Shown here piece after piece: positions 9,098-40,198 of a stretch of 64,000 nt of DNA. The first letter of the stretch is position 1, and each line of letters starts with the position of its first letter. The notes beneath the pieces are model-generated. The model was given only the letters and a program-made list of their open reading frames with translations. It did no database searches and was not told where the DNA came from. Origin of the DNA: an uncultured archaeon (GTDB taxonomy: Archaea > Thermoproteota > Bathyarchaeia > Bathyarchaeales > Bathycorpusculaceae); contig CAWENF010000002.1 in the NCBI GenBank assembly GCA_963810275.1, positions 32,001 through 96,000 of the forward strand. Direction: 5' to 3'. Position numbers and translations under genes: made by a program.

Positions 9098-9655
9098 ATG
9101 GCATGCCACGGCGGATTTAGCTTAGACGAAGAGCGACGGCGCAGCTGGTACAACCCCGAAACAGTTCTATCAGAACTCAAAGAGGGTATGACCTTCGTTG
9201 ACGTAGGTAGCGGAGAAGGCTACTTCAGCCTGCTGGCAGCAAAAAAAGTCGGCGCAACCGGAAAAGTCTACGCCGTTGACGTTGATGCATCTGGAGTTGA
9301 GAAACTAAATCGAAAGGCGGAAGAAGAAAAACTAAAAAACATCGTCGCAGCAATCGGGCGGGCGGAGGACACAGTTTTCTGTCAGGGCTGTGTAGACATG
9401 GTGTTATACAGCATGGACCTACATGACTTTGAAGAACCTGCTAAAGTGTTAGGAAACGCACATGAGATGCTAAAACCCTCGGGTATACTGGTGGATTTGG
9501 ATTGGAAAAAGATGCAAATGGACTTCGGTCCGCCTGAACGCATACGGTTTAGCGAAGAAAAAGTCTCTCAACTCTTAGCCGAGGCAGGCTTTAAAGTTGA
9601 ATCCAAAAAGGAAGCTGGACCCTACCACTACATCGTCATAGCGAAACCCATCTAG
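9098..9655 (+). CDS. Class I SAM-dependent methyltransferase
   Basis: FVDVGSGEG, VYAVD, LKPSG, DW..GPP motifs. Confidence 0.9.
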   Translation: MACHGGFSLDEERRRSWYNPETVLSELKEGMTFVDVGSGEGYFSLLAAKKVGATGKVYAVDVDASGVEKLNRKAEEEKLKNIVAAIGRAEDTVFCQGCVDMVLYSMDLHDFEEPAKVLGNAHEMLKPSGILVDLDWKKMQMDFGPPERIRFSEEKVSQLLAEAGFKVESKKEAGPYHYIVIAKPI

Positions 9656-10285
9656 GTTGTTGCATGCGCATAAAGTTCAAGCAAGTCACGTTGGAACCGC
9701 TTCGGGTCGTCTTTGTAGGCGGAGTGTGCGGCGCCTGCGTACACCAGCATTTTTGCGTTTGGCAATTGATCGGATAGCGAGCGCATTTCTTCGCCTGAGA
9801 TGATGGTATCCATATTGCCCCATACCACACGGACTGGGAAATGGAAATGTTTGTATGAGGAGACTAAATCGTCGTTTGAAAGCGTGAGCGGGGGATATTA
9901 GAAGTAAGGCTTTGACTGGATGAATTTTGGAGTATTGGAGGGCTATGTAGCCGCCTATGCTTGCACCGACCACCAGTGGCGGTTGGTCGCCGAAGACGGA
10001 CCGGTAAGCTTCCATAGCGTAGTTCACGTTGGCTTTGGAGTCTCGGTTCTTTGGGTGACAGTTACTTTTCAAACCATAGGGCATGTCCAAAGCCAGAAAG
10101 GGCACCTTTTTCTCTTCTAAGATTTCGGTTGCACCGATGCGTTGCCAAACGCCAATGGTGTAGGATAAGCCATGTAGAAACAGTACAGGGGAACCTTTTG
10201 CTTGGTACAATAGGGCTTGACCTTTGAAGCCGCCGAACTTTAGGGTTTTCTCTTCCACCAAACTCACCAGCCACACATACAACAT
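9652..10285 (-). CDS. Alpha/beta hydrolase, apparent frameshift near 9877
   Basis: VLFLHG and GASIGG nucleophile elbow; after removing one A the frame continues VVWGNMD...GAAHSAY to a stop at 9652. Confidence 0.85.
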
Positions 10286-10360
10286 AGCCGCTTATAACAA
10301 TTAAGAAACGTGGGAAAGACATAATAGCAAAACGCAGCCATAGTTTGATGGTGACTTTTT

Positions 10361-10835
10361 TTGACTGTTAAGGTTGGCGACAAAGCCCCAGACTTTACGT
10401 TACCCTCACAGATGGGCGACGACGTAACACTAAGCGAGTATATAGGAAAAAAGAACATCGTACTCTACTTCTACCCCAAAGACGAAACGCCCGGCTGCGT
10501 AAAAGAAGCCTGCACCTTCCGCGATGCCTACCAGCAACTTAACAGACTTAGGCGCCGAAGTGCTGGGCATAAGCGGACAAAGCGTGGAGTCCCATGTGGC
10601 GTTTGCATCGCATTATGGGCTGCCGTTTATTTTGCTTGCAGACGTGGATAACAGGGTACGGGAACTCTACGATGTCCCAAAGAGCATGGGGTTGATGCCG
10701 GGACGAGTCACTTACATAATCGATAAGAAGGGTGTTGTTCAGCACATTTTCAATTCACAGACTCACGCGGAGCGACACGCTGAGGAAGCCAAGCAGGCAC
10801 TGGAGGCAATCCAGAAAGAAGAAGTGAAACAATAG
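10361..10835 (+). CDS. bcp: Peroxiredoxin BCP/PrxQ, apparent frameshift near 10541
   Basis: GDKAPDFTL, YFYPKDETPGCVKEAC; second half GAEVLGIS...GRVTYIID. Confidence 0.92.
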
Positions 10836-10844
10836 GGCTCTGGG

Positions 10845-12068
10845 ATGCTTAAGCTCTTCAACACCTTAAGCGGCAAACTGGAACCCTTCAAACCCGCCGA
10901 GCCTCAAAACGTCAAAATGTACACATGCGGCCCCTCCACCTACCAAAGAGCACACATTGGCAACTACCGCACCTTCCTCTACGAAGACGTGCTCCAACGC
11001 TACTTGGAATACCTCGGCTTCAACGTTACACGTGCCATGCCGCTAACCGACGTGGAGGACAAAGCGGTTTTGCAAGCAAAAAAAGAGGGCATATCACTTG
11101 AAGAGTTAACTCAGAAGAACTTGGTGGTGTTCTTTGGCGACTTGAAGCTTTTGCATATCAAGAAGCCCGATTATCCTGTGGCGGCGTCGCAGGCAGTGGA
11201 CCAAGCGGTTATGTTGGTTGAGAGGCTTGTTGAGTCTGGTTATGCTTACTGGCACACGTATCATGGCGTCAGAAACGCATACTTTGCACCTTTGAAATTC
11301 AAAGGCTTTGGCAAACTCTCGCATTTGGATATGAGTAAATGGCCCAAGAAGCCCCGACGGTTCCATAAAGACACATATCCGGGTACACCGTGGAATATAG
11401 GCGACTTCATACTTTGGCACGGCTGTGGCTTAGAGGACACCTGTTTTGAAACCGCTATCGGAAGGGGGCGTCCATCTTGGAACATCCAGGACCCCGCAAT
11501 TGTCACCAAAACGCTGGGTTTTGAAATCGACTTGGCCTGCGGGGGCATCGACAACTTGGTTCGACACCACGACTACAACATAGCCGTAGCCGAAGCGGTT
11601 TCTGGCAAACAGTTTTCTCGGTTTTGGCTGCACGGTGGGCACCTCCTTGTAGATGGAGAAAAGATGAGTAAAAGCAAGGGCAACGTGCTGTACACTGATG
11701 ACGTGCTGAAGCGAGGGTTTAGTGGGGAAGACCTGCGGTTTTTCCTGATTTACGGTTTGTATAGTGAAGAACGCAATTTTACTTTTGAGCGGTTGGCTGA
11801 TGCGAAGCAGCTGCTGGATGAAGTTCGGGGGTTAGTGTCGGATTTAGCAGAAACTAGACCTGTAGGACAAGGGGCTTTTGGGAAAAGCTCGATTGCAGCT
11901 GCCTTCGAGGAGTGCATGAATAATAATTTAGATGTTAAGGACGCTTTTGATACAATAGCTCAAAAAGTCAAAGAAGCCCATCACAAACGTAAGGACATGT
12001 CGGGGCCTGAACTAAAAAATGTGTTAGATGATTTGCGCAGAGTAAACTCTGTGCTACAATGCATTTAA
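10845..12068 (+). CDS. Class I cysteinyl-tRNA synthetase-like ligase, divergent and C-terminally short
   Basis: YTCGPSTY..HIGN, DFILW, GRPSW and KMSKS are present, but WHIEC is WNIQD and HHENE is HHDYN; no anticodon-binding tail. Confidence 0.85.
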   Translation: MLKLFNTLSGKLEPFKPAEPQNVKMYTCGPSTYQRAHIGNYRTFLYEDVLQRYLEYLGFNVTRAMPLTDVEDKAVLQAKKEGISLEELTQKNLVVFFGDLKLLHIKKPDYPVAASQAVDQAVMLVERLVESGYAYWHTYHGVRNAYFAPLKFKGFGKLSHLDMSKWPKKPRRFHKDTYPGTPWNIGDFILWHGCGLEDTCFETAIGRGRPSWNIQDPAIVTKTLGFEIDLACGGIDNLVRHHDYNIAVAEAVSGKQFSRFWLHGGHLLVDGEKMSKSKGNVLYTDDVLKRGFSGEDLRFFLIYGLYSEERNFTFERLADAKQLLDEVRGLVSDLAETRPVGQGAFGKSSIAAAFEECMNNNLDVKDAFDTIAQKVKEAHHKRKDMSGPELKNVLDDLRRVNSVLQCI

Positions 12069-12319
12069 GATAGGTCACCGATGAGTTTGAGGTCAACGAA
12101 TTTCTCGTTGCCATGCGGGGCCATCTCAAGCTCATCAGTGAGGTCTTTACCTGAGCTATGCATGCCCATGTGTTCCCCTTCCATCCAGAAGCTGCTGTCC
12201 GTGACCTCATAGACTTTGCCCTGATATGCAATCCAAGCGGGTTTACCGTCTTGCCCGTTGTTTTTTTCTAGTTCTTCTTTGGTTACCTTTTTTGTTTCTG
12301 CCAAAAACTTCACTTCCAA
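12065..12319 (-). CDS. Cytochrome b5-like heme/steroid-binding protein
   Basis: EELEKNNGQDG.PAWIAYQGKVYEVT...GEHMGMH..GKDLT...APHG. Confidence 0.9.
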   Translation of the reverse strand: MEVKFLAETKKVTKEELEKNNGQDGKPAWIAYQGKVYEVTDSSFWMEGEHMGMHSSGKDLTDELEMAPHGNEKFVDLKLIGDLS

Positions 12320-13662: not shown

Positions 13663-14325
13663 ATGACATATTTTTTTGACCGCAAAGACGCGGGAAAACA
13701 GTTAGCAAAAGCCCTAATTGATTTCCCCACAGAAAATGGGCTGGTCTTGGCAATTCCCCGCGGCGGCGTAGTCGTGGGCTATCAAATCGCAGAAGCCCTA
13801 AACCTCCCCCTCGACGTTATCGTACCGCGCAAACTTGGAGCGCCTGACAACCCCGAACTCGCCATCGGCGCAGTGACAGAGGACGGCACACAGGTCATCG
13901 ATGAAGGCATAATCGCGTATCTAAACGTCAGCAACAGCTTCATTCAAGAGGAGAGCAGGAGGCAAATAGAAGAGATTGGACGCAGACTTCAAGTTTATCG
14001 AAAAGGAATGACGTCGCTGGATTTGAAAGAAAAAGACGTCATCATCGTGGACGACGGCATCGCTACAGGTTCAACTATGAAGGCGGCTTTGGCATCGGTT
14101 CGCAACAGAGGCGCCGCTTCGGTAATCGTGGCCGTCCCCGTCGGTCCACCTTCAACTATCAAAGAGCTCCAAGAGTTAGCTGATCGAGTTGTGTGTCCCT
14201 ACAAGCCCGATTACTTCCAAGCTATAGGGCAATTCTACGAGGACTTCAACCAGACAAGCGACGAAGAAGTTATAGCTCTGTTAAATGCTCGCAGAGTGGA
14301 AATGGGAGGGGTAGCAGCTACATGA
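13663..14325 (+). CDS. Phosphoribosyltransferase (COG1926-like)
   Basis: FFDRKDAG, IPRGG, RKLGAPDNPELAIGAV, PRPP loop IIVDDGIATGST. Confidence 0.9.
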   Translation: MTYFFDRKDAGKQLAKALIDFPTENGLVLAIPRGGVVVGYQIAEALNLPLDVIVPRKLGAPDNPELAIGAVTEDGTQVIDEGIIAYLNVSNSFIQEESRRQIEEIGRRLQVYRKGMTSLDLKEKDVIIVDDGIATGSTMKAALASVRNRGAASVIVAVPVGPPSTIKELQELADRVVCPYKPDYFQAIGQFYEDFNQTSDEEVIALLNARRVEMGGVAAT

Positions 14326-14975
14326 GTACCTCTGAGGTTGAGTTGAGGATTCCTGCGGGAGGCGTCGAGGTTTTTGGTAATCTGTTTTTGCCAGAAGGCT
14401 CTATTGGGCTGGTGGTTTTTGTGCATGGAAGCGGCAGCAGCCGGTTTAGCCCACGCAACCAATACGTGGCTAAGGAGTTTAACAAGGCGGGTTTGGGCAC
14501 GCTGCTTTTTGATTTGCTAACCCAAAAGGAGGAAGAGGTGGATGTAGCAACAGCAGAGTACCGCTTCAACATTCCCCTCTTGGCAGAGCGTTTAATTGGC
14601 GTAACGGAGTGGCTGCGACTGGACCAACAAACTCAGAATTTTAAGCTGGGTTACTTTGGTGCCAGCACGGGAGCTGCCGCGGCTTTAATTGCCGCTGCGA
14701 AGTTGCCCGGCGAGGTTTCTGCGGTGGTTTCTCGCGGGGGACGAGGCGACTTGGCAGGTGAATATCTCTCGCGGGTGGAGGCTCCGACGCTTCTGCTGGT
14801 GGGCGGATGGGATGAAGACGTTATAGAGTTAAACCGCCAAGCCCAGTCGCAAATGAATAGCCAGACCAAGTTGGTGGTGGTTGAGGGCGCAACTCATCTT
14901 TTTGAGGAGCCTGGCAAACTTGAAGAGGTCGCACGATTAAGCATAGAATGGTTCCAAAAATATCTAAAGCAATAA
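14322..14975 (+). CDS. Dienelactone hydrolase-like alpha/beta hydrolase
   Basis: HGSGSSRFSPRN, GYFGASTG, VSRGGR, HLFEEPG; ATGA overlap with the PRT gene. Confidence 0.88.
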   Translation: MSTSEVELRIPAGGVEVFGNLFLPEGSIGLVVFVHGSGSSRFSPRNQYVAKEFNKAGLGTLLFDLLTQKEEEVDVATAEYRFNIPLLAERLIGVTEWLRLDQQTQNFKLGYFGASTGAAAALIAAAKLPGEVSAVVSRGGRGDLAGEYLSRVEAPTLLLVGGWDEDVIELNRQAQSQMNSQTKLVVVEGATHLFEEPGKLEEVARLSIEWFQKYLKQ

Positions 14976-40122: not shown

Positions 40123-40198
40123 GCTGGGGTGGCCGAATCGCTGAGGCGGTAGCCTGCAGAGCTGCTTTATATGGGTTCAATTCCCATCCCCAGCTCCA
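40123..40198 (+). tRNA. tRNA-Cys (GCA), CCA encoded
   Basis: Acceptor GCTGGGG/CCCCAGC, U73, anticodon loop CT-GCA-GA, T arm ATGGG-TTCAATT-CCCAT. Confidence 0.9.

Follow-up and report, generated by a model that had tools for sequence, protein, structure and literature searches.

In cysteinyl-tRNA synthetase (CysRS), zinc is bound by Cys28, Cys209, His234 and Glu238 (E. coli numbering) and Trp205 packs on the thiolate; the zinc site of the mycothiol ligase MshC has three ligands, Cys/Cys/His without the Glu. MshC, described in the literature as ligating cysteine, is one of the two known CysRS relatives lacking the anticodon-binding domain. The other is CysRS* of Desulfobacterales: Mukai et al. 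(NAR 2017, PMC5389517) describe an altered motif in connective peptide 1 (CP1), said there to read the first tRNA base pair, and a pairing with selC* tRNA-Cys(UCA). A further truncated class I enzyme is GluQRS (YadB), a shortened GluRS which, according to PMC9437257, glutamylates queuosine in tRNA-Asp. The present report concerns an open reading frame (ORF) of 407 codons plus stop, at 10845..12068 on the forward strand of a 64,000-nucleotide stretch of Bathyarchaeial DNA (contig CAWENF010000002.1, positions 32,001 to 96,000; hereafter the window). The encoded protein, which has the CysRS fold and belongs to the class I synthetases of CysRS type, is abbreviated PAR, for CysRS-derived paralogue; its source genome, G000, amounts to 2.26 Mb in 28 contigs and is 92.6% complete. 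There is hardly any doubt that PAR is a genuine and conserved paralogue, distinct from the housekeeping enzyme and with a remodelled active site. As to its function, we propose, at slightly less than an even chance and from sequence comparison, that it is a functional, neofunctionalised descendant of CysRS, acting as an anticodon-independent and probably cysteine-activating ligase in oxidative-stress defence. The family is undescribed, and the literature searched does not mention it.

PAR is not the route to Cys-tRNA in G000, since the genome possesses both a canonical cysS and a normal tRNA-Cys. The canonical gene, a 476-aa frame, scores 522 bits with the TIGR00435 model against a cut-off of 340, and PAR remains under that cut-off at 286-287 bits; an earlier note on this DNA, made from the sequence alone, was therefore right in calling the protein a paralogue. 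The canonical cysS is found as two identical, same-scoring copies (C21:245034-246422 and C23:473-1861), which probably reflect assembly redundancy between contigs and not a true duplication. The tRNA-Cys(GCA), single and ordinary, lies within the window (40123-40198); it has G1:C72 and U73, and its CCA is encoded. The note had advised looking for a canonical cysS or for SepRS: cysS is present, as just said, and the best SepRS match in G000 was 48 bits for a cut-off of 381. Likewise, the other five PAR-bearing genomes found in an even sample of the class each have a second CysRS match, though in G148 it consists only of a 197-aa open frame.

The family is large. A word-indexed protein search gave more than 120 protein clusters, about 411 aa long and 63-99% identical, mostly from Bathyarchaeota where organism names were given; their public labels are 'cysteinyl-tRNA synthetase' or 'class I tRNA ligase family protein', when they are named at all. 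After clustering at 50%, a few PAR representatives (P0121-P0125, P0128) are followed directly by canonical CysRS at about 38% identity. Scanning contigs of one genome per species with a pattern confirmed at least 558 relatives, the best 80 having 56-74% identity; among the matches listed, nearly all are in Bathyarchaeia metagenome-assembled genomes from soil, peat and sediment. Two are on contigs binned as Methanocella and Acidoferrum, a probable case of mis-binning. Another 542 relatives were confirmed in metagenome contigs. The distribution is abundant in some lineages and patchy overall, PAR being present at 49% identity or more in 6 of the 151 genomes of the class sample. An outlying orthologue, 56% identical, is carried by a Freyarchaeota (Asgard) chromosome, CP147778.1 (L128), without any of the Bathyarchaeial neighbours; it is surrounded there by genes for DUF2070, SCP2 and a RuBisCO-like protein, and is possibly the result of horizontal transfer.

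N213, Q215, D216, R240, D243 and Y244, by which PAR differs from canonical CysRS (details below), are invariant across 130 family members and are therefore fixed and under selection; that they could be sequencing errors absent from relatives, a possibility raised in the earlier note, is thereby refuted. Across 39 members, reaching down to 44% identity, 59 columns do not vary. A phylogeny had also been called for in the note. In a tree of 92 rows (IQ-TREE quick search, LG+C20 model; MshC was left out and hidden Markov model scores were used in its place), all 17 PAR rows, together with the very divergent P0216, are on one side of a branch of length 0.57 with a Shimodaira-Hasegawa-like approximate likelihood ratio test support of 100, and all the canonical CysRS sampled, including those of Bathyarchaeia and that of G000 itself, are on the other. 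PAR thus forms a clade of its own and did not arise by recent duplication of the resident cysS. A second, unrelated group of truncated CysRS-like proteins of about 409 aa was also encountered (L046-L049, from G111, G134, G128 and G137, plus P0228). Its members read HLGH, GWHIED and PHHEAE, score 397 bits, i.e. over the cysS cut-off, and branch with full-length CysRS having Asp at position 209; their conserved neighbours look like a histone-deacetylase-like gene and genes of peptide ABC transporters.

In a Pfam scan, PAR matched tRNA-synt_1e over residues 15-321 with 234.6 bits, and neither DALR_2 nor CysS_C gave a match. The closest solved structures are CysRS 8qhp and E. coli CysRS 1li5; the alignment with the latter ends at residue 391 of 461, and the C-terminal alpha/beta anticodon domain is absent, as the note had claimed. 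This is a family trait, members extending 0-3 residues past the end of the query versus 54-100 for canonical CysRS. The AlphaFold2 model of PAR is of good quality by its own scores (mean predicted local distance difference test 92.5, predicted template-modelling score 0.92) and superposes on CysRS with template-modelling (TM) scores of 0.86-0.90, the best Foldseek match being 8qhp at 0.90, and on MshC with 0.84. When longer proteins containing PAR were searched for, the fusions that turned up were all of the canonical type, at 37-39% identity, and this weakly suggests that PAR stands alone as an unfused protein; the ESM Atlas yielded no functional lead, its matches being limited to other CysRS-like and MshC clusters of about 400 aa. 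The parts of the gene referred to below are as follows (positions in the window; motifs located by alignment).

10845..12068, + strand: PAR, composed of a Rossmann catalytic core, a connective peptide (CP) domain, a stem-contact (SC) fold and a helical bundle, but lacking an anticodon-binding domain at the C-terminus
10926..10928, + strand: Cys28, kept metal ligand, invariant in the family
10953..10964, + strand: HIGN, residues 37-40, class I ATP-binding signature
11337..11396, + strand: family-specific basic CP1 insert K165-W-P-K-K-x-R-R-F-H-K-D-T-Y-P-G-T-P-W-N184, standing for canonical (K/Q)AGARV
11478..11492, + strand: W212-N-I-Q-D216 (canonical WHIEC), with Asp216 at the position of zinc ligand Cys209
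11562..11579, + strand: R240-H-H-D-Y-N245 (canonical PHHENE; MshC PHHEYS), with His241 kept and the Glu238 ligand lost
11661..11675, + strand: KMSKS, residues 273-277

Because the HMMER alignment of PAR with E. coli CysRS is gap-free over residues 1-103 and across the active-site strands, the E. coli numbering can be transferred to PAR in these regions. With 1li5 as reference, Cys28 remains Cys28, HIGH (37-40) becomes HIGN, T68 is kept, and W205, D229 and H234 are found again as W212, D236 and H241; the replacements are H206 by N213, E208 by Q215, C209 by D216, H224 by A231, P233 by R240, E236 by D243, N237 by Y244 and E238 by N245. In terms of motifs, GRPGWHIEC is turned into GRPSWNIQD, DIHGGG into DLACGG and FPHHENE into VRHHDYN. 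Whatever the note had read from the letters is correct, including the intact HIGN and KMSKS and the length of 407 aa, but not every feature that it listed is particular to the paralogue: the canonical cysS of G000 itself reads YAHIGN and DIHCGG, so that HIGN and the Cys of DxxCGG are lineage traits. All class I adenylation motifs are present (HIGN, KMSKS and G233-G234-x-D236) and, if the alpha-amine contacts G29 and T68 are added, PAR retains every element for aminoacyl-adenylate formation.

Remodelling of the metal site, which the note had put forward for this one protein, proved to be family-wide. Cys28, N213, Q215, D216, R240, His241, D243 and Y244 are invariant in the 130 members. N213, Q215 and D216 are thus in 100% of them, while H, E and C occupy the same positions in 99-100% of 102 canonical sequences, a set picked for having Cys at 209 and Glu at 238; in these canonical rows, Cys28 and His234 are likewise conserved at 90% or more. 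At position 245, the equivalent of Glu238, T occurs in 103 cases, N in 25, and either I or V in 3 (counts from 256 rows where paralogues and canonical sequences are mixed). In all, twelve pocket differences separate PAR from canonical CysRS (T31S, V32T, G204A/S, H206N, E208Q, C209D, M212I, F232V, P233R, E236D, N237Y and E238T/N), and C28, G29, T68, W212, H241, H242 and KMSKS are common to both. PAR therefore keeps two of the four canonical zinc ligands, C28 and H241, and has D216 and N245 in place of the others.

One way to read these changes, drawn in the earlier note from C209D and E238N, is that PAR activates an amino acid other than cysteine; we would think of a more anionic or bidentate one, e.g. 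cysteine sulfinate, cysteate, phosphoserine or Asp. The clustering of the twelve specificity-type differences at the pocket speaks for it. So does the charge: the pocket would gain about three positive charges (E208Q, E238T/N and P233R), which weighs against our proposal in that it suits equally well an amino acid more anionic than cysteine. The two substitutions, however, do not by themselves imply another substrate. Asp at position 209 is also found in apparently normal, full-length CysRS provided with the anticodon domain (P0190, P0239, P0247), as well as in the second truncated group (G111, G128, G134, G137, P0228), which keeps Glu238; and MshC, which reads PHHEYS in the Glu238 region and thus has no Glu ligand and a Tyr at the preceding position, is nonetheless described as using cysteine. 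The HHDY[T/N] of PAR is in fact closer to MshC than to CysRS. Furthermore Cys28, His241 and Trp212, the counterpart of the Trp packing on the thiolate, are invariant. Since C28, D216 and H241 do not vary down to about 44% identity, the site looks like a retained Cys/Asp/His one, which suggests that a metal site has been kept. The proposal of a different amino acid is accordingly unsupported in the form given by the note, and we consider it quite unlikely.

The acceptor side is altered as well. In CP1, the canonical (K/Q)AGARV is replaced by the family consensus K-W-P-K-K-x-R-R-F-H-K-D-T-Y-P-G-x-x-W-N, in which W166, P167, R172, H174, D176, T177, Y178, P179, G180, W183 and N184 are near-invariant. 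The median isoelectric point (pI) of the family is 8.85, with a net charge of +7.5, compared to a pI of 5.94 and a charge of -8 in the corresponding region of the 102 canonical CysRS. This gain falls within the CP domain and residues 208-325; E208 and E238 are among the acidic residues lost in a conserved manner, and 15 conserved gains of Lys or Arg (R63, K79, K80, R143, K165, K168, K169, R171, K175, R240, R316, K323, R328, K365 and R382) are spread over four domains, helical bundle included, although position 323 is a Leu in the PAR of the window. The copies of G038, G078, G148, G090 and G007 go up to a net charge of +17 to +25. Several other CysRS-like proteins without the anticodon domain but with the four ligands are also very basic, at pI 9.7-10.3; many proteins of that kind are basic, e.g. 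P0139 and P0148, and another of them, P0164, is only at pI 7.64 and net +1. Such a basic shift would fit electrostatics taking over from lost anticodon contacts in RNA binding, and tips the balance, if only slightly, towards an RNA or tRNA acceptor arm. Two observations pull the other way: the PAR of the window is itself only mildly basic (pI 7.65, net +1), and no unusual tRNA was seen, tRNA-Gln being the only one to recur nearby among 85 PAR loci (17 of them).

The same data bear on another possibility, namely that PAR is a CysRS*-like synthetase dedicated to a non-canonical tRNA and used for recoding. CysRS* with its selC* tRNA-Cys(UCA) provides a precedent (PMC5389517), and PAR shows the basic shift too. 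But there is no selC*- or selB-like gene adjoining PAR in 162 loci, and G000 has its single tRNA-Cys and no tRNA-Sec match over the cut-off, keeping in mind that ARAGORN can miss odd tRNAs. We find this explanation very improbable.

What suggests a link with oxidative stress is the genomic neighbourhood. In the window, PAR is framed by two genes:

10361..10835, + strand: bcp, AhpC/TSA peroxiredoxin with a CxxxxC motif, directly 5' of PAR on the same strand
12065..12319, - strand: cytochrome b5-like protein, convergent, overlapping the PAR stop codon and part of the conserved block

The bcp stop codon (10833-10835) and the ATG of PAR (10845) are 9 nt apart, the distance given in the earlier note. 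Conservation of the neighbourhood, which the note had wished to see examined, is extensive: across 86 genome loci at 56-100% identity there is a block made, in this order, of genes for a UDG-family glycosylase, a hypothetical protein, a muconolactone-isomerase-like protein, an S-adenosylmethionine (SAM) methyltransferase, an alpha/beta hydrolase (opposite strand), Bcp, PAR, the convergent cytochrome b5-like protein and a zinc-ribbon membrane protein. Bcp is at rank -1 and on the same strand in 73 of the 86, and the cytochrome b5-like gene is found in 43, at 300 nt or less from PAR in 39. Adjacency of Bcp alone says little, because the whole block is conserved. The methyltransferase of the block was considered as a partner of PAR and rejected, as it occurs in 6 loci without PAR.

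A survey of 27 loci, anchored on the alpha/beta hydrolase gene, tells more about the pair. The outcome was:

Bcp and PAR together: 14 loci
PAR alone: 2 loci
Bcp alone: 1 locus (G102)
Bcp with a PAR remnant of 89 residues: 1 locus
neither Bcp nor PAR: 8 loci, in 4 of which cytochrome b5 adjoins the hydrolase
undecidable because of a contig end: 1 locus

Bcp and PAR thus tend to come and go as a cassette. In G102, which belongs to the same genus, bcp and the cytochrome b5 gene are 184 nt apart with no PAR in the gap. The remnant, in L172 (G334:C11), consists of PAR residues 1-89 only, between Bcp and cytochrome b5, and is apparently what is left of a deleted paralogue.

In 76 more divergent metagenome loci, gene order differs from one PAR clade to another and an antioxidant theme recurs:

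Fe/Mn superoxide dismutase (SOD) directly upstream (rank -1): 2 loci, from the sister clade of the Bcp clade
OsmC-hydrolase fusion, hibernation factor and CNNM transporter upstream: 7 loci
ferritin-like protein, nitroreductase or short-chain dehydrogenase/reductase (SDR) upstream and DinB directly downstream: about 8 metagenome and 3 genome loci
hemerythrin upstream: 3-4 loci

One of five antioxidant families is encoded within 3 genes of PAR in 18 of the 76 loci; these families represent 5 of the about 2366 ORFs of G000, and chance would give roughly 1-2% of loci. Contrasting near with far positions gave 18/323 versus 7/330 genes. That five clades should each have a different antioxidant neighbour (Bcp, SOD, OsmC, ferritin-like protein or hemerythrin) is hard to credit to inherited synteny, and the redox part of the note's suggestion of a redox or low-molecular-weight (LMW) thiol role draws support from it. 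The DinB gene, for a Y-family DNA polymerase of the DinB/Dpo4 type (IMS and IMS_C domains), lies 10-16 nt downstream, on the strand of PAR, in L043, L044 and L045, in metagenome loci L198, L210 and L216 and in others; beyond it, the genome loci at about 50% identity and the Freyarchaeota locus have no neighbour theme in common.

Several facts limit the weight of this argument. The antioxidant families were picked after having been seen beside PAR, which biases the near-versus-far contrast towards a link. None of them is within 3 genes in 58 of the 76 metagenome loci, many of which have short flanks. Loci within a clade are not independent, and an honest count would be about five contexts, all the Bcp cases being in one PAR clade. 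As seen above, Bcp can exist without PAR (G102) and PAR without Bcp (two loci), and neither needs the other. Finally, there is no RNA-library contig on PAR, in contrast to the methyltransferase gene (9370-9690) and the cytochrome b5 gene (12171-12307), on which such contigs were found.

The bcp gene of the window calls for a comment. As assembled, its frame is broken in two: one base too many near 10541 in CTTAACAG, by comparison with L050 and G038, leaves the overlapping frames 10361..10651 and 10524..10835. The gene is intact in 24 aligned relatives. Contigs of the short-read type from runs X1 and X2 have one base fewer at 9878 and at 10356, and none spans 10541; position 9878 belongs to the gene of the alpha/beta hydrolase, which can be matched to relatives up to residue 144 of 201, and 10356 is in a T run upstream of bcp. 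These differences suggest homopolymer indel errors in the assembly, and the break in bcp may for this reason be an artefact. Farther downstream, at 13663-14975, the ORFs of a phosphoribosyltransferase (13663..14325) and of a dienelactone-hydrolase-like protein (14193..14975) share about 130 nt in the ORF list; an internal ATG near 14325 is the probable start of the latter.

The ligase function that we propose for PAR could operate in the following manner. A three-ligand zinc site, as many ligands as in MshC, would have been kept and would bind a thiolate amino acid, with cysteine as the likeliest; this, or a close analogue carrying a thiol, would be activated with ATP, and the acyl group would then be passed to a negatively charged acceptor, recognised without reading the GCA anticodon. 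The product would serve in the defence against peroxide or oxygen stress and, in the lineage of the window, PAR is predicted to be co-transcribed with the peroxiredoxin Bcp. For the acceptor, an RNA or tRNA acceptor arm is our first choice, although we would give it clearly less than an even chance; a phosphorylated or otherwise anionic small molecule, handled by an MshC-like chemistry, comes second and is doubtful. In broader terms, PAR might be a stress enzyme of Bathyarchaeia and of at least one Freyarchaeota genome, a CysRS derivative drawn into oxidative-stress regulons and responsible for anticodon-free cysteinylation of RNA or tRNA, for making a new archaeal LMW thiol, or for turning its adenylate, with the help of the newly positive pocket, into a dinucleotide-polyphosphate alarmone by analogy with LysU; this wider picture is tentative.

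The second of these outcomes can be taken further, to a tRNA-independent ligase of the MshC type, which would adenylate cysteine and join it to the amine or hydroxyl of a small metabolite, thus providing an archaeal LMW thiol feeding peroxiredoxins. PAR has the same size and the same domain loss as MshC, its fold superposes on MshC with the TM score of 0.84 mentioned above, and HH[DE]Y[S/T/N] is common to both where CysRS has HHENE. The presence of Bcp, OsmC and SOD among the neighbours is in keeping with such a function, and so is the replacement in PAR of the CP1 motif to which PMC5389517 attributes the recognition of the first tRNA base pair. On the other hand, PAR is not MshC itself: it reaches only 182 bits (P0121, 189 bits) with the MshC model TIGR03447, whose cut-off is 485.1, and the cysS model scores it higher, at 286 bits; MshC has a Cys where PAR has an Asp; and conserved basic residues are found as far out as the helical domain, well away from the active site. 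Partner enzymes fail to appear as well: G000 contains no match to PF02585, i.e. no PIG-L/LmbE deacetylase of the MshB type, within its 92.6% complete sequence, nor an MshA equivalog (best TIGR03449 match, 129 bits for a cut-off of 462), and no glycosyltransferase or acetyltransferase is conserved beside PAR in any clade. An MshC-type ligase therefore seems unlikely to us, and the mycothiol side of the note's redox or LMW-thiol hint is not supported.

As a conserved and seemingly active synthetase paralogue that has left translation and neighbours genes for peroxiredoxin, SOD, OsmC, ferritin-like protein or hemerythrin, PAR offers a concrete, clonable entry point to the way in which anaerobic Bathyarchaeia cope with oxygen. 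These organisms rank with the archaea most abundant in peat and sediments, and we know of no biochemical work on the thiol or redox system of any of them. PAR is also a natural experiment on the rebuilding of the CysRS zinc site, with Cys changed to Asp and the Glu ligand lost. In addition, the present annotation of PAR proteins can mislead counts of aminoacyl-tRNA synthetase genes in metagenome-assembled genomes.

How PAR compares with the systems already described may be put as follows. The Zur-regulated CysRS paralogues of proteobacteria were considered as a match and set aside as a different case, since they keep their zinc ligands according to PMC2770081. GluQRS resembles PAR in being a class I paralogue that lost its anticodon domain and still acts on RNA, and as such it is a model for an RNA acceptor; it differs in coming from another parent family, and there is no evidence here for a modified nucleoside as target. 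With CysRS*, PAR shares the status of second CysRS copy, the missing anticodon domain and a changed CP1 motif, but CysRS* is genetically coupled to the selC* tRNA and to selB*, whereas no tRNA or elongation-factor partner is near PAR. MshC (TIGR03447; PDB 3c8z and 8hfm) has in common with PAR a length of about 410 aa, the absence of the anticodon domain and of a ligand of the Glu238 type, and an HHEYS close to HHDY[T/N]; it is actinobacterial and PAR archaeal, and where MshC has Cys and Pro, PAR has Asp and Arg240. To CysRS itself (TIGR00435, PF01406), PAR is alike in fold, in its HIGH-type and KMSKS motifs, G29 and T68, the equivalent of W205, GGxD, two of the four zinc ligands and the helical bundle; it departs from it by a score below the cut-off, the loss of the anticodon domain, C209 changed to D and E238 to T or N, a basic insert in place of AGARV, a separate clade and its coexistence with cysS. 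PAR would in this way add a third functional class to the CysRS relatives without an anticodon domain, beside MshC and CysRS*.

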